From Centroscyllium fabricii (Eukaryota), in the NCBI GenBank assembly GCA_051313645.2, contig JBNRSN020000011.1, positions 96,224,001 through 96,288,000 on the forward strand: a stretch of DNA of 64,000 nucleotides, in the 5' to 3' direction. Position 1 is the stretch's first letter; each line of letters begins with the position of its first letter. The notes beneath the pieces were generated by a model. That model was given only the letters and a program-made list of their open reading frames with translations. It was not told where the DNA came from and did no database searches. Of this stretch, positions 8,437 to 61,415 are shown piece after piece. The position numbers and the translations under genes are program-made.

Positions 8437-9686
8437 GGCCCTGAATTTGAAGTGGGTAATAACAGCGAACAAGCACGGTTTGCTGTTATTACCCCTTTGA
8501 AACTGACCGTAACTTCAAGGTGTCGTGCATGCGCATCCTAATGCAGAAATCCTGAAGTTACGGCCAGTAATTCATTACGCAGCTGTGCTGTGCCCCCCTG
8601 CGACAATCAGTCTAATCTGTCAAATCGCGGACACTGATGAAAACTTCAGCTCTTCCGCAGTAATACCGCTGTTAAATTCCCCACTACAAGTTAGACCCCG
8701 GGTCTTAACAGCGTATTGACTGCTAAACAAAGGTTATGGCTTTGAAAAACTAATTTTAATTTTATCGTGTCAAATTTATCCATTAATATATAAAACATTT
8801 TTTTTTTTTTTTAAAGTTTGTTCATTTTTATTTCAGGTTTGCCTTTTCCCCACGAGAGCACCCCAATTTTTGTTTTGCTCTCTAGCATTTTTAAAAAGTT
8901 AGAATATTAGGAGCTTACTCACTTCCTGGTTCGCTGTGAGAATTCTGTGTTTTGATTGGCTGCTTTAAAAAAAAAATTATGGGATGTGGACGTCACTGGC
9001 ATGGCCAGCATTTATTGCCAATTCCGAATTGCCCTTGAGAAGGTGGTGTTGGTGAGCCGCATTCTTGATCCACTGCAGTCCGTGTGTGAAGGTACTCCCA
9101 CAGTGCTGTTAGGTAGGGAGTTCCAGGATTTTGACCCAGCAACGATGATGGATATACTGCTAAGTCTGGATGGTGTGCGACTTGGAGGGGAACTTGCAGG
9201 TGGTGGTGTTCCTATGCGCCCGCTACCCTTGTTCTTCTAGGTGGAAGAGGTTGTGGGTTTGGGAGGTGCTGCCAAAGCCTTGACTATTTGCTACAGTGCA
9301 TCTTGTAGAGGGTACACTGTACCCTCGGCACGCTGGTGGTGGAGGGGGTGAATGTTTAAGGTGGTGGATGTGGTGTCAATCAAGCGGGCTGCTTTGTCCT
9401 GGATGGTGTAGAGCTTCTTGAGTGTTGTTGGAGCTGCACTCATCCAGGCAAGTGGAGAGTATTCCATCACACTCCTTACTTGTGCCTTGTAGATGCACTT
9501 AGACAGCTTGTTGACATCACAGCAGCTCTTCACTGGGAATCCTCATTAACTTGCAGTGATTTCAATTACATGTTGGAAAAGCTGAACTTCTTGCCGTCGA
9601 GATTGCGAGATCTTTGTGGGAAGCTTACTTCAAAGCCAGCAAGCAGAGAACACCTTTGCTTCGCTGTGGACTACAAATTACAGGCC
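8437..9686. mobile_element. Non-autonomous TIR element (ISL2EU/Harbinger-like) with AT target duplication
   Basis: GGCCCTGAATTTG…CAAATTACAGGCC flanked by AT/AT, interrupting CR1. Confidence 0.7.
8977..9500 (-). mobile_element. LINE 3' region (CR1/L2 group) nested in the TIR element
   Basis: IYKAQVRSVMEYSPLAWMSAAPTTLKKL…QDKAARLI. Confidence 0.75.
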
Positions 9687-9882
9687 ATTCTGCTTTTCCA
9701 TTCTTCCTACCAAAGTGGATAATTTTGCACTACCCCACATTATATTCCATCTGCCACCTTCTTGCCCAATCACTTAACTAGTCTATATCTCCATGCAGCC
9801 TCTTTACGTCCTCCTCACAGCTTACTTTCCCACCTAGCTTTGTACCAGCAAACTTGGATACATTACACTTGGTCCCCTCATC

Positions 9883-10899
9883 TAAGTAAGTAAGTAAATT
9901 TTATTGTCGCGTAAATGAACACAAATTCAGATAGTGAAATGCCTACTGCTATTCCACGTGCTACATAACAACTAACAACACAGAACACTAGATACATAGC
10001 ACGCCCGGAACCCGCAAGACGTCAAGCCATTCTCCGGCGCCATCGTTGAGGGTCCACTTGAGTTCGATGTTATCAACTTTCATCCATATCGATAACGATA
10101 ACTGCTGATTCGAGGTCTTCGATGTTTACGGGAGTGAAAAACTAGACGCCCGATGACCAACCATCGGCACGAGGACAGACCCCAACTAAAAACTCCGGAT
10201 CGCCAAGCCTCTGCATCTCGGGAGTGAAGAAACGGAGGACACACGCTGACTCACGGCCCGAGACAGGCCCGACGAAACTTCGAGCCCCCGCACCTCGGGA
10301 GTGAAGAGACTGAGGCCCGACCCGCGGCCCGACGAACTCCGAGCTCCCGCACCACGGGAGTGAAGAAACGGAGGCCCGACGAACTCCGAGCTCCCGCCCA
10401 CGGGAGTGAAGAGGCTGAGGCCCGACCACGGCCCGACGAACTCCGAGCTCCCGTACCACGGGAGTGAAGAGGCGGAGGCCCGACCACGGCCCGACGAACT
10501 CCGAGCTCCCGCACCTCGGGAGTGAAGAGGCTGAGGCCCGACCCGCGGCCCGACGAACTCCGAGCTCCCGCACCACTGGAGTGAAGAAGCGGAGGCCCGA
10601 CCACAGCCTGACGAAACTCCGAGCTCCCGCCCACGGGAGTGAAGAAACGGAGGCCTGACCATGGCCCGACGAACTCCGAGCTCCTAACGGCAGGACCAAC
10701 GAGATTTTCTCCCGAAAACATCGAAGACAAAAAAACGTTATCTAAATTTAAACTCAAAACATTGGCCAAACTCTCAGCTGACTTTCCCAAGGGCCAATGT
10801 TTTAAATTTAAATTCAAAAATGAGGTATAACATTATTTTAAATCAGTTCTCGAACAGCGCGCCATCACAACGACCTCCCCAGCCGGAGATCAGCGCCCC
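9883..10899 (-). mobile_element. Non-autonomous retroelement with internal ~58-bp GC-rich minisatellite (about 10200-10685)
   Basis: Minus-strand tail GCATTTCACTAT…GACAATAAAATTTACTTACTTAC; inserted into CR1; about 8 units containing CCCGACGAACTCCGAGCTCCCG. Confidence 0.6.
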
Positions 10900-12519
10900 C
10901 AAAGCCATTGATACAGATTGGAAATAGCCACGGTCTAAGCACTGATCCTTGCTGCACCCAACTAGTTACACCCTACCATCCTGAAAATGACTACTTTATT
11001 CCACTCCTTCCTGAAAATGACCACTTTATTCCTGTCTGTTAACCAATCCTCAATCCACACTAATAGATCATCTCTGAGCAGATCAAACTTCTGCTTGGTA
11101 GCCCAATAACAGAACCAGGTCCTGGTGTTGCTGCCTAAAGCTTAGTAGAACAAACAAATTTGCAGTAATTCAAGTGTAGATACTAAAATAAATTAATGTA
11201 CTAAAAAGAACCCAATTAACTTACTAGCTTTGGAAATTTATATTAGTTGCTAAAAAATGTTTGAAGAGCTCTGTAGCTTTAAAATACTGACTGCAATGAA
11301 AGTGTCTTTTTTCGGTTAGCATTTAGGCTCAGTTATTTTTCTTCTAAGCCAAGTCTTTGAATTCTCAAATTCAGATATATTTGAGAGACGCAGGTGGTGC
11401 AATAAATCTGCTTTCATTTTGTATTTGACCTTCAGCACAGCTATCGGAAAGCTAACAGTCTCTTGCTGCTGGGCAAGCAATAAATGTCAACTAGATGTAG
11501 TTGAGAAGCCTTTGTGGAAACAACTACTGGCAGTAATTCCCCCTTATGAGCTACAAGTGTTCTAATTAGCATATCCACTCGTAGCATAGTTTGACATTTC
11601 CAAAGTCCATTAACTATCTATTTGTACGGTTTGCTCATTATACTTTTGTGATAAATTGATGCTGAAAGAGACACCTTAAATAGCTTTCAGAAATGTCAAG
11701 TAACCCGCTCTTGCTAAAAATGCATTATTGGTATTTGGTTTGCTTTGTAGCTTAAAATGGCTTTAAACAGTGACAATTTTAAGAGGTTGGGGCAAGAAAT
11801 AATATTGTGTCCTCTTATAATTATGAGGAATGAAATCATTGCTTTTGTAAGCATATCAAAAGAAGTTTGATTTATGCCATTCAAGGCCAAGGTTTATCTG
11901 CTTTACAGAAGTCATTAATTTTTCTACAAATAACAAATACATTTCATTTTTAAAGTGTACTTCAGGAGATAAGGCAATTTATTTTAGGTAGGTTTGGATT
12001 TTTAAACTAATATTCTGATACAAATTCAACATTGATAGTATTTGGGTTCATAAAAAAATTCAGCTATGCAATGCATTTTAAAACTGAAATACCATACCAG
12101 ATATTCCAGGTTTCAAATACTAGACTTGTGGTTTTACAATATCACTGGCATTAATAGAAATTCTCATTGGTGACGTCATCTAGATTTCTGATTGTTTGCC
12201 TATTAACTATTTCCAATCCAAATTTAAGTTGCTAATTGCCATGAATTCAGGATATGACAAATAATGAAAACGTCCCTGAAGATTGGATAGAGATATAATA
12301 CTGTCACTGCAGTCATGTACAGTAAGTCACCAATTAGTTATTAACTTAAGGTAATACAGAAGTAAATCAATTAATCTTGTGCCATTGAAAAAAAAAATCC
12401 TATCCATTAGAACATACAAATGCATCGAACAAACAAAGATCATTAGATCCAGCAAGTTTGCTCTTTCTACTGATCATGTGCAACTTTCTTCATCCATTCA
12501 ATTCAGAGGTAAAGTGCTA

Positions 12520-13057
12520 CAGGAAACCCTTGTTTAAACGGCACCTAAATATCCGGAATTTTCTATTAACCGGCAAAATTCATACTCCGAAAACAACACC
12601 TCAATAAATTGGAAATGTCGACGAGCTAGAGTCTCCCACGGTATCCGAGTTAGTCAGTGGGGGTAGTTCTCCAAACTGCCACTACTCAGCTTCTTGGCGC
12701 TGTCAGGAGTCCAAACACCTCAATAACAGGAGTCTGACTCTCCAGCGCTGCCGGTAGTCTCTTCCGATCAGCCATTTTTCTGTTTACTGTGCAAGTTTTT
12801 TTTTACTGTTAAATAATTAAAGAATTATGGATTATCCTCAACTGGCAGTACTGTACTTATTCAAGCATCTTCCACCATCCATTTTTAACACAACATTCTG
12901 TAGGTGAGTACCCAATTACAGTATACTGCACATTTCTTGATTATTTTATTTTTCTTTGTTAAAAATAGCCTCGGCAGATAACCCCCTCAGCCATCCAGAA
13001 TTTTTAATCAACCGGCTCCATCCCGGTCCCGTCGGTGCCGGATACCAGAGTTTCCTG
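12520..13057. mobile_element. Tigger/pogo-like MITE (older family)
   Basis: TA|CAGGAAAC…GGCACC and GGTGCC…GTTTCCTG|TA termini. Confidence 0.7.
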
Positions 13058-14115
13058 TACATAAATACTGTTAAACACAAAGGATAATCATGCAAGTCCC
13101 CAGAACATTCATACATCTATATATTTCCAAAATTCATCTCTGAACTGCTGGCTTCCAGACAACATTTCCTCTTCACCCATATAGCACCTGGGAGTAGGGA
13201 GCAAGTGCAAGGATTGCACTAACCATCTGCACTTTATTTCTTTTGTTTCCATTTAGAATTCAAAACAATTACTTTGCGGAAAAGGTATTCACTTTTCAGT
13301 GGAAAGATCGGGTTGTGTCTTTGCTTATAACAGTAATTACGTTTGTTTTTCCCATACATGACAGCTATGTTATCTGATTTTACTTCAGAAAGCATCCAGC
13401 CAAGAGACAGACAGACAATTACAATACTTGTGTTCGGTTGTATTCAGAATTCCAGTAGGGTTATACTTTTACACTTTTCCCAGTGTTGCGAAAACTCGTC
13501 AAATACCAGGACCAGCCAGTGAGTGCTGCCATGCACCAGGACCCCACCACAGTGCTGCAAACACCAGGACTGCACCCCACATCCCCACACCATGTTGGAA
13601 AACCTCACTACTTCTACCATAATAAGGCTGTCAAACTCCAGGATCCTAGTCCAGTGTTGCCAAAACTGAGTTCTCCTTCTCTCCACCTCAGCTAAATACC
13701 AGATAAATACATTGAACCCACTGCATCTTGCCTACCATATTTTCTTGTGTACCCTGAGCTTTCAAAAATGTAAGAGGTAAAACTGAGCACACAAGTCAAG
13801 GTACATATAATAATCAAGCCAACTTGATTTACAGGTTTCACAGAAAACTGGACAGGGCATTTCAATCCTCAAAGCAGTGGCACAAATCACAGAAATGTCA
13901 AGTAATAAATAAGCAATTTGATATGATCACTATAAATAAGTGGTTCTGGTGATAAATGGCACAACGCCTGTATTATAAAATAACATTTCTCTGGCTCATT
14001 GCAAGCAAGGCCATAGGAGATCTGTTTAAAAAGTCAGAAAGTGTGCAGCTGTCCATCACACTCTGGCATCACACGGATTAGCTGGAAATAAAAAAGTTAC
14101 AACTTGTAACTATCC

Positions 14116-14615
14116 ATTGTCGTTGTCACCTCCAAACGCAAGTAATCCAATGCTCTCCTGACTAGCCCGCATCCACTACCCTCCGTAAACTTCAGCTCGT
14201 CCAAAGCACGGCCACCCGTATCCTAGCTCGCTGTGCCCAGTACCCCAGCCCTTGCTGACCTACAGTGGCTCCCAGTTTCCCAACAGCTCAAATTTAAAAT
14301 CATCCCAATGTTTAAATCTGTTAATGGCTTCACTCCTCCCCCATCTCGAAACCCCCACCCCAAAACACTTCCTTTGAATCTGACCTTTTGTGCATCCGCT
14401 CACTTCACCCCACCTTTGGCAGCTGTTCTGGAATTCCTTCGGCACCGCCACCTCCCCTTCCTCCTCCTTAAAACCATGTCTTTGACCAAGCTTTTGGTCA
14501 CCCTCCCAATAGCGCCTCTTCTGGAGCAGTGTCCCCTTTTTCTGATTACACCTCCATGAATCACCTTGGGGAAATAATTTCTGTTAATATGCGCTATATA
14601 AATGCAAGTTATTGT
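14116..14615 (+). mobile_element. Decayed L2 3' end
   Basis: TPALADLQWLPVSQQLKFKI and GCGCTATATAAATGCAAGTT tail. Confidence 0.75.
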
Positions 14616-23713: not shown

Positions 23714-24363
23714 CAGGTTGTGCACTGTTAATTCGGCACGGGTGGGACTAGGCCTGCGCCGGTATACCGAAAAAAACGGGTGAATGAAGCCGGCCAGTGC
23801 GTGTGCACCATTCTAAATGGCCGCGCGCATGCGCACAACATTGCAAGTGGCCACCGAAGGTGTGAATGATCTGCGCATGTGCAGATCATGCGAAATGGCC
23901 GCCCCGAAGTTGTACCCTCGATGTCGGGCATCTACTCCTCATCAGACAGGTCGGAGAAGGCCTCCTCCTTCTCCTCGTCTCCCAGCGACTCCGAGGCGCC
24001 GGAGCTCTCAGCCTCCCGAGTCCGAGTCGCTGTTAAAACCGCTGCTGCCTTCCATGGGGGCGGCGTCTCCTGAAGCCATCGGGACGATGAATGTTAATGT
24101 GCCGGGATCAAAGGCTGGAGTGAGCTCTCGCCTGCCTGTCTGCTCACCCCGACTGCCCTGCGCATGCGTAAAATGGCCGCCGATCGAGGCTTCGGCGAAT
24201 GACCTGCACATGTGCTCGCCGTTCGACGGCGCATGCGCAGATCATTCGCCGAAGCCTCGACCGCAGCGGCCATTTTGCGCATGCGCAGGGCAGTCGGGGC
24301 GATTTGTGCCGGACAACTGAAGTTGCCGGCTTTTCGGTTGCCTGATTAACGGTGCTCAACCTG
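23714..24363. mobile_element. Tigger-like NRF1-motif MITE, copy 2, with acidic coding-like cargo
   Basis: TA|CAGGTTGTGCACTGTTAAT…ATTAACGGTGCTCAACCTG|TA. Confidence 0.9.
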
Positions 24364-44285: not shown

Positions 44286-45001
44286 CAGGTTGAGCACCGT
44301 TAATCCGTGTCCCGAATAGCCGGCAGCTTCAGTCTGCCGGCACAAATTGCCCCGACTGCACTGCGCATGCGCAAAATGGCAGCCCCCATCGTGGCTTCAG
44401 CGAATGATCTGCGCATGCGCCGAGCGCATGCGCAGATCATTCAAAACAGCTGCGGGTGTTTTGAATGATCTGCGCATGCGTCACCGGCCGGTTAGCGCAT
44501 GCGCAGATAATTCAATACGGCCGCCCGTTATTTTCTCGACAGCTGAGCCCCGTGACTGAGGCGGACAGTCACTAGGCAACAGCTGTCAGCCTGAGTCCCG
44601 CTCGGCGGCAGCAGCAACCCCAAAGGCGATAATGCGGAGGTGCCTGTGTTGGACTGGGGTGGAGAAATGCAAAAAGTCACACAACACCAGGTTTAAAGTC
44701 CAACGTTTTATTTTAAATCACAAGCTTTCGGAGCTGCGAAAGCTTGTGATTTAAAATAAAACGTTGGACTTTAAACCTGGTGTTGTGTGACTTTTTGCAT
44801 TTGTCCAAAGGCGATGGAGAGGGATGGCGGACCCGGGCCCGATCTGCGCATGCGCGCGCCGGCGAATCGCAATGCCGCGCGCATGCGCGCGGCCATTTTG
44901 ACTGGCGCGCATGCGCAGTGTCCAAACTCGTTCTCCCGGTTTTTTCCATTTCCCGGCACGGGCCTGGTCCCGCCCGTGCCCGATTAACGGTGCTCAACCT
45001 G
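44286..45001. mobile_element. Tigger-like NRF1-motif MITE, copy 5 (X-box cargo plus nested Penelope hairpin)
   Basis: TA|CAGGTTGAGCACCGTTAATC…GATTAACGGTGCTCAACCTG|TA. Confidence 0.93.
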
Positions 45002-46719: not shown

Positions 46720-47432
46720 CAGGTTGAGCACCGTTAATCCGCGTCCCGAATAGCCGGCAGCTTCAGTCTGCCGGCACAAATTGCCCCAACTGCACTGCGC
46801 ATGCGCAAAATGGCAGCCCCCATCGTGGCTTCAGCGAATGATCTGCGCATGCGCCGAGCGCATGCGCAGATCATTCAAAACAGCTGCGGGTGTTTTGAAT
46901 GATCTGCGCATGCGTCACCGGACGGTTAGCGCATGCGCAGATAATTCAATACGGCCGCCCGTTATTTTCTCGACAGCTGAGCCCCGTGACTGAGGCGGAC
47001 AGTCACTAGGCAACAGCTGTCAGCCTGAGTCCTGCTCGGCGGCAGCAGCAACCCCAAAGGCGATAATGCGGAGGTGCCGGTGTTGGACTGGGGTGGACAA
47101 ATGCAAAAAGTCACACAACACCAGGTTTAAAGTCCAACGTTTTATTTTAAATCACAAGCTTTCGAAGCTCCGAAAGCTTGTGATTTAAAATAAAACGTTG
47201 GACTTTAAACCTGGTGTGTGACTTTTTGCATTTGTCCAAAGGCGATGGAGAGGGACGGCGGACCCGGGCCCGATCTGCGCATGCGCGCGCCAGCCAATCG
47301 CAATGCTGCGCGCATGCGCGCGGCCATTTTGAATGGCGCGCATGCGCAGTGTCCAAACTCCTTCTCCCGGTTTTTTCCATTTCCCGGCACGGGCCTGGTC
47401 CCACCCGTGGCGGATTAACGCTGCTCAACCTG
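46720..47432. mobile_element. Tigger-like NRF1-motif MITE, copy 6 (near-identical to copy 5)
   Basis: TIRs and TA flanks; flanking DNA differs from copy 5. Confidence 0.93.
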
Positions 47433-50603: not shown

Positions 50604-51085
50604 CAGGTTGAGCACCGGTAATCTGTTACCCGAAACGCCGGCAACTTCAGTGGTCCGGTATAAATCGCCCCGACTGCACTGCGCATGCGCAAAATGGCAG
50701 CCGCGATCGAGGCTCCGGTGAATGATCTGCGCATGCGCCGCCGAACGCATGCGCAGATCATTCAAAACGGCCGGCGGACGAGCCGGGCCTTCCATGGCAT
50801 CAGGGCGCGGCGGCTCGCGCTGCGTTTTGAATGCGCGAGTCCCGAGCGCCCGCCATGGTGAAGCACACGGTTCCCCGGAGCAGCCTGCAGGCCGTCATTA
50901 GGAGGCACAAACCGCAGCGGAGACTCAGCAAGGACGTTCGGCGGCCATTTCCAATGTTTTGCGCATGCGTGCAGCCATATTGAATGGTGCGCGCATGTGC
51001 ACTGACCGACTTCATTCTACTGTTTTTTTCTCTTTCCCGGCACGGGCCTGGTCCCGCCTGTGCCGGATTACCGGTGCTCAATCTG
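50604..51085. mobile_element. Tigger-like NRF1-motif MITE, copy 7, carrying a CENPW-like fragment
   Basis: TA|CAGGTTGAGCACCGGTAATC…GATTACCGGTGCTCAATCTG|TA. Confidence 0.92.
50855..50938 (+). pseudogene. CENPW: Captured CENP-W-like N-terminal coding fragment
   Basis: GCCCGCCATGG Kozak context; MVKHTVPRSSLQAVIRRHKPQRRLSKDV vs recalled chicken MRRTVPRGTLRKIIKKHKPHLRL and human PRGFLKRVFKRKKPQLRL. Confidence 0.7.
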
Positions 51086-52010: not shown

Positions 52011-53259
52011 CAGGTTGAGCACCGTTAATCCGGTAACCGAATAGCCGGCAGCTTCAGTCTGCCGGCACAAATTGCCCCGACTGCACTGCGCATGCGCAAA
52101 ATGGCAGCCGACATCGTGGCTTCAACGAATGATCTGCGCATGCGCCGAGCGCATGCGCAGATCATTCAAAACAGCTGTGGGTGTTTTGAATGATCTGCGC
52201 ATGCGTCGCCGGAAGGTTAGCGCATGCGCAGATAATTCAATACGGCCGCCGGTTATTTTATCGATAACTGTAATTGAAGCCATGATGTGGAGGTGCTGGT
52301 GTTGGACTGGGATGGACAATTGTAAGAAGCCACACAGCACCAGGCTGTAGTCCAAAAGTCCCACTCGAAACGGGGGAGCGGCGCTCCGAAAGCCCGTGAC
52401 CCCAACTAAAGCCGTTGGACCACAGCCTGGCGCCGTGTGACCTCTTACAGAGCAAAACGGGATTGGATAAATTGCCCCCGCGCCACCCTCCTTTCCCCCC
52501 CCCCCCCCGACCCGACCCGCGCCTTCCTCCCCCCCCCCCGCACCCGCGCCTTCCTCCCCCCGCCCCCCCCCCGGACCCGCGCCTTCCCCCCCCCCCCGGA
52601 CCCGCGCCTTCCTCCTCCACCCCCCCCGGACCCGCGCCTTCCTCCTCCGCCCCCCCCGGACCCGCGCCTTCCTCCTCCCCCCCCCGCCCCCCGCGGACCC
52701 GCGCCTTCCTCCTCCCCCTCCCCCCCCCCCGGACCCGCGCCTTCCTCCTCCGCCCCCCCCCCCCCCGGACCCGCGCCTTCCTCCTCCCCCCCCCCCCCCC
52801 CGGACCCGCGCCTTCCCCCTCCTCCCCCCCCCCCCCCCGGACCCGCGCCTTCCTCCTCCCCCCCCCCCCCCGGACCCGCGCCTTCCTCCTCCCCCCCCCC
52901 CCCGGACACGCGCCTTCCTCCTCCCCCCCCCCCCCCGGACCCGCGCCTTCCTCCCCCGGACCCGCGCCGCGCCGCGCCACCCTCCTGCCTCCCCCCGCAA
53001 GACCGGCCTTTCACTGCTGCCCGACAGCCCTAAAACCTAAACGGAACGCCACAAAAGCCTGAGCCCATCAAAAAACTTCGCGGCGGCCAATATTGGACGA
53101 TCTGCGCATGCGCGCGCCAGCCAATACCAATGTTGCGCGCATGCGCGCTGCCATTGTGACTGGTGCGCATGCGCAGTGTCCAAACTCGTTCTCCCGGTTT
53201 TTTCCATTTCCCGGCACGGGCCTGGTCCCGCCCGTGCCGGATTAACGGTGCTCAACCTG
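52011..53259. mobile_element. Tigger-like NRF1-motif MITE, copy 8, with Penelope piece and C-rich minisatellite (about 52475-52980)
   Basis: Perfect TIRs; TA duplication inside CR1 coding sequence. Confidence 0.93.
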
Positions 53260-57545: not shown

Positions 57546-58574
57546 TTAATGTGTAATCCCCGACTCAAAAGGATTCAGAAACAGACAGGAATCTGCACTG
57601 TTATTGTGCCTCATCACTTTACATACATCCCAAAATGTTGGACAGTACAGTACAGTGCCGTAACTGGTGCGAGTAGGTGAAATGACTGCTCAAATATTAC
57701 TAATGGTAATGAGTTTGAGGAGTCCAATATAACTCGTGGCATACAATAAAACTGAATTTATGGTTTTATATACAGTATAAAGTATTTTAAGCCACCAATG
57801 TAAATGTCACACCATAATTTGTAAACCTGTCTGTTGAGCAAAATCTCTGAGCCTTGTCCCTAGGTTTATAGATCATAACACCTGCAAGGTATGACAAATG
57901 GAAGAGTGTCATATACAGGGTACCATTATTACCAGCAATTATGCAGCTAATCTAAAAAGATATTTTGATAAAAGTTACATTCAAATAAATATACTGCTGA
58001 ATATTCTTCCCAACAGAACCCCTCAGCACCTTCATTTCAACATAGGCTTCAAATTCAGTCCAGTCTAGGAATTGATCCATTGCTGTACATCTCTGAAAAG
58101 CACTCTATTGGCTGAATATGCTGTAGTATCAATCAGGCAGTGTCTTTTTCCAGAGTCAGGTAGCTCCAGATCACTGAGTCCAATCCAGGGGACTAGGTGA
58201 TGCAGTGAGTTGCACACTGGACTCAACTCTGGGATTTGTGTTTGGATTCAACCACAACTAATAGGACAAAAGTTCCTCTGTGTGATGCGCCATTACTACT
58301 TTACAACTTCCACAACACATGCTCTAGGCCTTTGCGCATCAGGATATATACGTGGATGTATTTGTGCTCAAGACAGTTGCTAGTGCTACGGAATGCAGCA
58401 TTTTCCATTTTTTACACCCAGTATTAGCAGTAAGGTCAGATACAACACAGGTTAGATGCTGCATGCAAGGTAAAGCTCCTTCTACACCACCCAATAATTC
58501 ATCTCAACCCCAATCTTCATTAACCACCCCATACTGCCCAGTGACATTTCCATTTACCACTTGAAATACTAGTA

Positions 58575-59186
58575 CAGGTTGAAGTTCGTTAATCCGGCAC
58601 CCGAAAAACCGGCAGCTTCAGTCGTTCGGCACAGATTTTCCCGACTGCCCGGCACATGTGTAGACAATTCAAAATGGCCACCGTCGGGGCTGGGCTTCTC
58701 TTTCACCTAACTTATACTCACTGGATCCCGGCTTAGTGACCACCCCGATGCCGATGGTGAATCCCAGGCCCAGAAGATGAGCTGTTCTGCCAGCCGCATT
58801 TCACAGGACGCGATACAGGCAATTCTCGGTGCCCATTGCTGCCGGAGGCTCCTGCCTGGCTGCGTGCGGATGTCACCGTGTTCCGAAGCTGGCGTGCAGT
58901 GGCGTCACGTGAGCCGGGCTTGAGCCGCCCATTGGGCCTCAGGCCCGCTGGAGCTGTGCAGCCCGCTCCCTGATCTGCAGCAGAATCGAGTGCGAGTTCC
59001 ACCCGACCCTTGGGCCGAAAATCAACTCCCAGGTACCAGCGAGCGCATGCGCAGAGCATTGAAAATTTTGTGGCAGCCAATTTGAATGCTCGGCGCATGC
59101 GCCGCCGTGGCTTCAATAATTCGGCGTTTTCAATAATCCGGCAGGGTTCTGGTCCCGACCCTGCCGGATTAACGAACTTCAACCTG
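58575..59186. mobile_element. Tigger-like MITE, copy 10, carrying a CYB561D2-like promoter and first coding exon
   Basis: Perfect 25-bp TIR CAGGTTGAAGTTCGTTAATCCGGCA with TA flanks. Confidence 0.93.
58722..58836 (-). pseudogene. CYB561D2: Captured CYB561D2-like first coding exon with intact donor and one TGA
   Basis: MGTENCLYRVL*NAAGRTAHLLGLGFTIGIGVVTKPGS|gtgagt vs recalled human [37 protein letters not shown]. Confidence 0.8.
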
Positions 59187-59382
59187 TATTGTTTCTCATT
59201 TCTCTCAATCAACCTACTACCTGGATGTAAAACTGAGCAATATCGCACTCTGAATGTCCCACATACAAAGCTTTGGTTTCCTTAAAAGTTTCACTCATCT
59301 AATAAGAGTTCAATTCACATGAAGCTTACTTAAATTCCTATTCTCCACAGTCCAATCTTACGTTACAATAGAATATACTTAC

Positions 59383-60269: not shown

Positions 60270-60736
60270 CAGGTTGAGCACCGTTATACTGGCACGGGCA
60301 GGACTAGGCCCACGCTGGTAGAGCGAAAAAACCGGTAGAATGAAGCCGGCCAGTGCGCACGTGCACCATTCAAAATGGCCACGCGCATGCGCACAACATT
60401 GGGAATGGCCGCCGAACATCCTTGTTGAGTCTCAGCTGCGGTTTGTGCCTCTTGATGACGGCCTGCAGGCTCGCTTCGCCATGGCGGGCGCTCGGGACCC
60501 GCACAAATTGCGACGCGTGCCGCCGTGCCCTGACGTCACGGAAGGCCCGGCTCAGCAAGCGGCCGTTTTGAATGATCTGCGCATGCGCTTACTGTTCGGC
60601 AGCGCATGCACAGATCATTCGCCGAAGCATCGATCACGGCGGCCATTTTGCGCATGCGCAGGGCAGTCGGGGCGATTTATACTGGACGACTGAAGTTGCC
60701 GGCGTTTCGGGTAACGGATTAACGGTGCTCAACCTG
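60270..60736. mobile_element. Tigger-like NRF1-motif MITE, copy 11, second CENPW-like cargo (60415-60482, minus strand)
   Basis: TIRs with TA flanks; cargo MAK…SLQAVIKRHKPQLRLNKDV with a 16-bp deletion relative to copy 7. Confidence 0.9.
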
Positions 60737-60892: not shown

Positions 60893-61415
60893 CAGGTTGA
60901 GCACCGTTAATCCGCGTCCCGAATAGCCGGCAGCTTCAGTCTGCCGGCACAAATTGCCCCGACTGCACTGCGCATGCGCAAAATGGCAGCCCCCATCGTG
61001 GCTTCAGCGAATGATCTGCGCATGCGCCGAGCGCATGCGCAGATCATTCAAAACAGCTGCAGGTGTTTTGAATGATCTGCGCATGCGTCACCGGACAGTT
61101 AGCGCATGCGCAGATAATTCAATACGGCCGCCGGTAATTTTCCCGACAGCTGAGCCCCGTGACTGAGGCGGACAGTCACTAGGCAACAGCTGTCAGCCTG
61201 AGTCCGGCTCGGCGGCAGCAGCAACCCGAAAGGCGATGGAGGGGGAACGCGGACCCGTGCCCGATCTGCGCGTGCGCGCGCCAGCCAATCGCAATGCTGC
61301 GCGCGGCCATTTTGACTGGCGCGCATGCGCAGTGTCCAACCTCGTTCTCCCGGTTTTTTCCATTTCCCGGCACGGGCCTGGTCCCGCCCGTGGCGGATTA
61401 ACGCTGCTCAACCTG
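60893..61415. mobile_element. Tigger-like NRF1-motif MITE, copy 12 (as copies 5/6 but without the hairpin)
   Basis: TIRs with TA flanks; single AAAGGCGAT at the empty site. Confidence 0.93.

Follow-up and report, generated by a model that had tools for sequence, protein, structure and literature searches.

The 64,000-nt stretch of DNA that was analysed (the window) contains 11 paired elements of one transposon family and one unpaired end, and the interiors of these elements differ. The element described here is 612 bp long, occupies window positions 58575-59186, bears its cargo on the minus strand and has TA at both flanks. Its arms (58573-58599 versus 59162-59188) are 100% complementary and each consists of a 25-bp terminal inverted repeat (TIR) plus TA, in agreement with the perfect 25-bp TIRs described in the sequence-only reading of this DNA. 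Inspection of the letters together with arm complementarity placed the TA target-site duplication at 58573-58574 on the left and 59187-59188 on the right, and the TIRs at 58575-58599 (plus strand) and 59162-59186. On the minus strand, the order of parts is arm, CCAAT, TCACGTGAC, ATG, 115 coding bases, GTGAGT, 39 nt of intron and arm.

The features that follow are all on the minus strand. The arm 5' of the cargo (59041-59186) carries GCGCATGCGC repeats. Its end is homologous to the right end of a pogo/Tigger transposon of 2.38 kb from the same genome, and the end of the arm 3' of the cargo (58575-58682) to the left end of this transposon. Between the arms lie 5' UTR and upstream (promoter-position) DNA of CYB561D2 (58837-59040, delimited by alignment to the parent gene), the coding part of CYB561D2 exon 1 (58722-58836; 115 nt, i.e. 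38 codons and one base, with a phase-1 donor) and the first 39 nt of intron 1 (58683-58721), which open with the GTGAGT donor (58721-58716) and were defined by alignment to G000:C1156 and by spliced contigs. The upstream segment includes a CCAAT box (58931-58935), the motif TCACGTGAC (58904-58912), which we take to be an E-box/CLEAR-like site and which is the same in the aligned parent, and the position of TGACGTCA (58868-58875), presumably a CRE-like site, which is present in the parent and in the majority sequence of the copies and is decayed in the window copy. The exon copy is 9 nt shorter than the parent directly after the ATG and has a premature TGA at codon 12 (58803-58801), derived from CGA. 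The whole cargo has a GC content of 0.62 and a CpG observed/expected ratio of 0.7. All of the coordinates given earlier for the motifs, ATG, stop and donor stand.

To identify the parent gene, we searched the assembly that contains the window (G000, 7.2 Gb) with the Pfam Cytochrom_B561 model, which gave 8 matches, two of them the last exons of D-type genes, and aligned the 100 kb upstream of each D-type last exon to the element interior. Over both 100-kb stretches, the interior aligned only at G000:C1156:5726377-5726003, 22.5 kb upstream of exon 3. The exon-1 peptide showed 92% identity at this D2 locus versus 44% at the D1 locus, the best named matches of exon 3 at the C1156 locus were CYB561D2 of sharks and rays (84-91%), and a pairwise test of the window copy against the CYB561D2 exon-1 region gave an E value of 4e-109. 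On these matches, we identify the captured gene as CYB561D2 and not D1, and the proposal that the cargo is the CYB561D2 N-terminal exon is borne out. The shark and ray matches of exon 3 also mark the host as a cartilaginous fish. The peptide of an intact copy was 73% identical to a named shark CYB561D2 over 37 aa; exon 1 alone was not recognized by Pfam.

The parent alignment spans element positions 147-504 (window 59040-58683), a colinear stretch of 358 bp with sharp ends, and its identity is 81% including gaps for the window copy and 84% for the majority sequence of 30 copies. It contains four indels of 12, 7, 11 and 9 bp, and the donor is identical. The capture thus extends over ~200 bp of upstream DNA, exon 1, the donor and 39 nt of intron, and G000 has a single CYB561D2 locus. 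The captured upstream DNA is a putative promoter, a term based here on position and motifs. In the parent, a second exon of 38 nt, which runs from phase 1 to phase 0, lies 9.6 kb downstream of exon 1. Runs X2 and X6, contigs from two other, related organisms that we guess to be RNA, each yielded one ~2.86-kb contig in which exon 1 is joined to exon 2 exactly at the donor, so that GTGAGT coincides with the parental exon boundary both in the genome alignment and in spliced contigs, as had been predicted. The parent stretch is boxed on both sides by simple G-rich tandem repeats (G000:C1156:5726400-5727200 and 5725600-5725950).

The copy number of the cargo was assessed by counting exact matches in the assembly to a 26-base word from the exon (4,278) and an 18-base word from the 5' UTR (4,453); reversed control words gave 0. 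One match of each word is the parent gene, leaving at least 4,452 element copies. In the first 224 Mb of contig C1, 41 of 100 exon-word matches also had the UTR word, and capture-recapture, which assumes independent decay and is based on this one contig, gave 9,600-10,900 copies (interval, 8,700-14,200). Cargo copies therefore likely number about 10,000. The TIR variant of the window element accounted for 11,838 exact TA-plus-TIR ends. Among 41 elements picked by this TIR and without both words, the cargo was present in 9, a 23-bp tandem repeat in 24 and another promoter-like cargo in 6, one was a lone end and one was cargo-free; in the same stretch, ~27 elements (counted by eye) were linked to either word. 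When the 41 TIR-picked and ~27 word-linked elements are taken together, roughly every second element of this TIR variant carries the CYB561D2 cargo.

TA was found on both sides of 26 of the 30 top BLAST matches and of 31 of the 44 copies whose two ends could be seen, and the copies were dispersed, with distinct flanks and distinct TA duplications. Each copy sample was drawn either from a single contig or from the top BLAST matches. In other organisms, the DNA contigs obtained numbered 1 for organism H and 896 for organism G, and organism A has the whole element. On these results, the amplification postdates the split from H and is common to A; its limitation to a lineage is drawn from DNA run X24 of a related organism, which had 1 contig only. 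Run X23 gave no contig and runs X2 and X6 no arm contigs, an absence that is uninformative for those organisms.

An older subfamily, which made up 6 of 36 and 6 of 59 copies in two samples, has a different TIR spacer and retains the parent's 12-bp, 7-bp and ATG-region segments, which the young subfamily does not have. Both breakpoints are identical in all aligned copies, old and young, which argues for one capture, after which DNA was deleted inside the element. In the young form, 9 bp behind the ATG are missing and the frame is kept, and several old forms are frameshifted at this place. Furthermore, 27 of 59 copies have two to four tandem units of a 133-bp segment containing the CCAAT, E-box and CRE-like sites. 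The divergence of copies from the majority sequence is 6-13% at CpG positions, compared with 2-3% at non-CpG positions, and a tree of 36 copies, the window copy and the parent was star-like, so the order of events was taken from shared indels instead.

Two features of the window copy were clarified by these comparisons. Codon 12 is CGA in 27/30, 32/36 and 48/59 copies and TGA in 3 copies of each of these partly overlapping samples, and the parent gene has AGA at this codon today. Because CGA dominates in the three samples, the stop is attributed to CpG decay, as suggested previously. The CCAAT box is present at 58935-58931, as reported; it is not demonstrable as a captured element of the parental promoter, however, because today's parent is missing the 11-bp segment that contains it. 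Since this segment is found in both old and young copies, and neighbouring 11-bp deletions recur among the copies, its loss from the parent would be a simpler reading than its gain by the element.

Other members of the family in and around the window were also inspected. The window has 22 family ends in its 64 kb, a density ~5-fold that of three other stretches (60-70 per Mb). The arms of the window element and of all its sisters contain repeated GCGCATGCGC and GCCATTTT motifs, which we take to be NRF1-like and YY1-like, respectively, and have a CpG observed/expected ratio near 1. The family arms thus look like CpG-island promoter DNA, and such arms could place elements near promoters or add promoter activity. 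Sisters at 50604-51085 and 60270-60736 carry CENPW DNA with CRE and cell-cycle-type sites and first codons; the CENPW parent stretch is at G000:C1:428958824-428958977, and this cargo ends ~10 nt short of the donor. Both of the parents traced, CYB561D2 and CENPW, are gene starts, and the other sister interiors look like promoters or first exons.

Three further sisters in the window (44286-45001, 46720-47432 and 60893-61415) have promoter-like cargo with an ATG and a GTCACTAGGCAAC site, presumably RFX-like, and two of the three contain a fold-back retroelement piece inside the cargo. In the sister at 23714-24363 and in L016:2322-3222, the cargo looks like an acidic N-terminal exon with GT at its end, for which a homolog search gave no match. 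The sister at 52011-53259 combines an expanded C-rich minisatellite with promoter-like DNA that has a CCAAT site. Elsewhere, the minus-strand interior of L002:903-1249 and L018 (446 onward) resembles a non-coding first exon with a GTGAGT donor behind it, and its sequence recurs as a loose end in run X1. With the TIR variant of the window element, the commonest other interior is the 23-bp tandem repeat, which is of variable length (L230 and 23 others). The second cargo of this variant (6/41: L222, L205, L210, L214, L215 and L217; also G000:C1156 near 5800530-5801259) is promoter-like and ends in ATG, 4 bases and a donor-like GTACGG.

The element shows the traits of a pogo/Tigger miniature element (MITE), i.e., TA duplication, short TIRs, a length of 612 bp, no transposase and high copy number. 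In G000, a 2.38-kb TA-flanked family encodes CENP-B_N, HTH_Tnp_Tc5 and DDE_1 domains (Pfam), and the ends of the element match the left and right ends of this family in the correct pairing with scores of 44-50 and 30-42; shuffle maxima were 27-36, and the true scores exceeded nearly all of 300 shuffles each. Clustered pogo/Tigger copies with a 558-codon open frame were seen at L153 (G000:C967:7024100-7029600) and other C967 matches, which are probably a segmental array. The TIR spacer of the 2.38-kb autonomous family differs from that of the window element, an autonomous partner with an identical TIR was absent from the 50 loci fetched of 150 scored DDE_1 loci (1,714 candidates), and none of the 41 TIR-picked elements had a DDE match. 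The pogo/Tigger assignment is for these reasons one of homology, and the mobiliser was likely a transposase of this type.

The capture breakpoints were compared with a 324-bp cargo-free element, L227. Its sequence agrees with the 5' arm for 150 nt, as far as the breakpoint, and with the 3' arm except for 9 nt that it does not have. L227 is best regarded as a close relative and not as the progenitor; other cargo-free relatives diverge in sequence beyond the left breakpoint. At the 5' breakpoint (59037-59040, minus strand), which falls at a hairpin loop of this relative, GCCG is common to the parent, the relative and the majority sequence, and the window copy differs by 1 base. With relatives standing in for the true progenitor, microhomology with the parent is 4 bp (GCCG) at the 5' breakpoint and 1-2 bp at the 3' breakpoint. 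Of the three strongest local hairpins in L227, two have the breakpoints in their loops; ~11-18% of interior positions qualify as such, giving a chance of ~0.01-0.03 for both, a post hoc figure from one relative.

Based on these observations, we propose that a ~320-bp cargo-free element broke in or between two internal hairpins and that repair of the break might have proceeded by a template switch to the open, GC-rich start region of CYB561D2, with the 4-bp microhomology on one side and 1-2 bp on the other. The G-rich repeats beside the switch points are possible fork-stalling sites. A hairpin break with template switching would fit the gap-filling or FoSTeST routes of capture, both of which are discussed by Tan et al. 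(PMC8277862). The transposase of a family with homologous ends would then have amplified the cargo-bearing element, whose high copy number would reflect good transposon ends and not use of the cargo. Our main reading, with a probability of roughly 85%, is that a non-autonomous cut-and-paste element flanked by TA carries a CYB561D2 start cassette in thousands of copies, which likely go back to one capture by repair of an internal break, were likely spread by pogo/Tigger transposase and, where sampled, decay neutrally.

Of the first 59 consecutive UTR-word matches, 42 have an ATG, open frame and GT, 39 have CCAAT and 32 have CACGTG. Extrapolation of 42/59 suggests about 7,000 open cassettes. After 6 old and 3 truncated or deleted copies were set aside, the 50 remaining young copies had 70 nonsynonymous and 29 synonymous distinct non-CpG changes, an omega of 1.09 (p 0.75); omega was 1.26 in 60 other, partly overlapping copies, and five different 1-bp frameshifts were present among the sampled copies. 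These results indicate that the captured exon is under no purifying selection and that the sampled copies decay neutrally. Conservation of the exon was considered and rejected. In a sample picked by the exon word, CpG loss was 12% in the exon versus 20-26% elsewhere (p 0.005), and 24 of 30 copies were intact versus 19 expected (p 0.06). This effect was traced to selecting the copies by the exon word; in an independent sample, CpG loss was 17.5% in the exon, 16.7% in the 3' arm and 23.9% upstream, and the gap shrank to p 0.08.

Some of the cassettes, although of the same origin, might act as mobile promoters or exon traps that splice the captured donor into host exons, which may coexist with neutral decay of most copies. 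The 42/59 open ATG-to-GT cassettes, the 27/59 copies with two to four promoter units and the abundance of element contigs in run X1 (guessed to be RNA) speak for it, and bat HelibatN3 offers a precedent (PMC4778049). An intact CYB561D2 copy (L106:9139-9733; G000:C1:428968776-428969370) lies in sense in intron 1 of CENPW, whose own start was captured by a sister subfamily, with its donor 423 bp before the exon-2 acceptor; however, the join to this exon would be out of frame. The neutral substitution pattern also argues against exon trapping, as does the 4-5-fold faster decay of CpG sites than of other sites, which would be expected for methylated DNA. Moreover, among the matches listed, the donor loose ends in runs X1 and X9 were all unspliced intron variants, with no foreign exon and no chimeric splice at the donor, a weak test with contigs of another organism. 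Altogether, we consider this alternative doubtful, and the best reading is that the cassettes are passengers, with exon trapping possible at some loci.

A broader version is more tentative still, namely, that hairpin-rich pogo/Tigger MITEs, repaired preferentially on CpG-island gene starts, might have seeded ~7,000 CYB561D2 cassettes and thousands more from CENPW and other genes, that a share of these drives new host first exons, and that the family would be a cut-and-paste counterpart of the bat Helitrons on a larger scale.

Other routes for the origin of the cargo fared worse. It could have come through an RNA intermediate if an unspliced or upstream-started transcript had been reverse-transcribed and inserted into an element, in a genome that is rich in retrotransposons and has SINE and LINE pieces inside sister elements. 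However, both intron sequence (39 nt) and DNA upstream of the ATG (~200 nt) are retained in the cargo, which indicates capture at the DNA level and not retrocopying, as the sequence-only reading had argued. Beyond the exon match, the mRNA contigs extend by no more than 49 nt (X2) and 22 nt (X6), although contigs cannot fix the start of a transcript, and the cargo has no poly(A) and no duplication around it, the arm sequence being replaced and not interrupted. An RNA intermediate is therefore very unlikely and largely refuted. It is even harder to sustain that two elements flanked the parent exon and moved as a composite, or that a neighbouring element was read past its end: family members do occur within 25 kb of the parent, the closest ~23 kb off, but neither an arm nor an inner TIR adjoins the parent exon, and the junctions are internal to one element, with a single cargo-free relative matching both sides. 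Chance resemblance or local segmental duplication has a negligible probability, given the E value of 4e-109 to a parent on another contig and the thousands of dispersed copies with differing flanks and TA duplications.

To our knowledge, cut-and-paste gene capture in animals is rare and nearly always single-copy, and against this norm stands one captured gene start at about ten thousand copies. Its datable subfamilies, cargo-free relative and parent locus make the capture mechanism (hairpin break and template switch) testable. Most of the sampled copies retain an open exon and could start new transcripts, and the thousands of open cassettes may serve as a natural experiment on new transcripts, silencing, or titration of the parent's factors or small RNAs.

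Among known systems, the element is like pogo/Tigger MITEs in its TA duplication, its ~25-bp TIRs starting with CAGG, which we take to resemble human Tigger4, and its ends homologous to the 2.38-kb transposase element; it is unlike the autonomous pogo/Tigger family found in its different TIR spacer and host-DNA interior. It shares with rice Pack-MULEs a GC-rich fragment captured in trans, although the superfamily is different. Copy number per captured fragment is low in rice Pack-MULEs. These elements capture GC-rich gene fragments in trans by a TIR element, followed by transposition (PMC8277862).

In the bat Helitron HelibatN3, which numbers about a thousand copies, the cargo consists of the NUBPL promoter, six codons and a donor, and the bat captures described in the cited text comprise 15 promoters with 4,690 copies together (PMC4778049, PMC4224331). 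Like HelibatN3, the CYB561D2 element combines promoter-position DNA, a start codon, a donor and the start of an intron in one mobile cassette and belongs to a family that leans to gene 5' ends as a whole, and its cargo copies outnumber the 4,690 of all 15 bat promoters; exon trapping has been demonstrated in cells for HelibatN3 and is putative for the CYB561D2 element. Unlike Helitrons, which are rolling-circle elements without TIRs, it is a TA-flanked TIR element. Helitron hallmarks are 5'-TC and CTRR-3' ends, no inverted repeats and an AT target (PMC4778049), and the perfect TIRs and TA duplication rule out a Helitron identity.

Finally, by the features tested, the element appears to qualify as a multicopy Pack-TIR: host DNA lies between both arms of one TIR element, the parent copy (G000:C1156:5726377-5726003) has no element in its flanks, the cargo retains intron sequence, and the copies are dispersed with distinct target duplications. 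Tan et al. (2021) reported 370 Pack-TIRs in 100 genomes, four of them multicopy in reference genomes, with an example of three copies; the multicopy animal cases include frog Pack-hAT-N8_XT (CAPSL 5' UTR) and fly Ssk-FB4, and the word shark is absent from the main text of that paper (PMC8277862). A literature search found no report of this element, of CYB561D2 capture or of high-copy shark Pack-TIRs, although subscription journals, Repbase/Dfam or supplements may have one. Like the animal multicopy Pack-TIRs, the CYB561D2 element has an element-free parent on another chromosome-scale contig, GC-rich cargo and transpositional spread, and its putative microhomology at a breakpoint would be a further likeness. 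The class of capture is thus already known, the function of the cargo is putative, and what appears to be new is the scale and the complete gene-start cassette: unlike the reported animal Pack-TIRs, which it exceeds ~1000-fold in copy number, the CYB561D2 element numbers at least 4,452 copies, with an estimate of about 10,000, forms subfamilies and carries a complete cassette of upstream DNA, ATG and donor.
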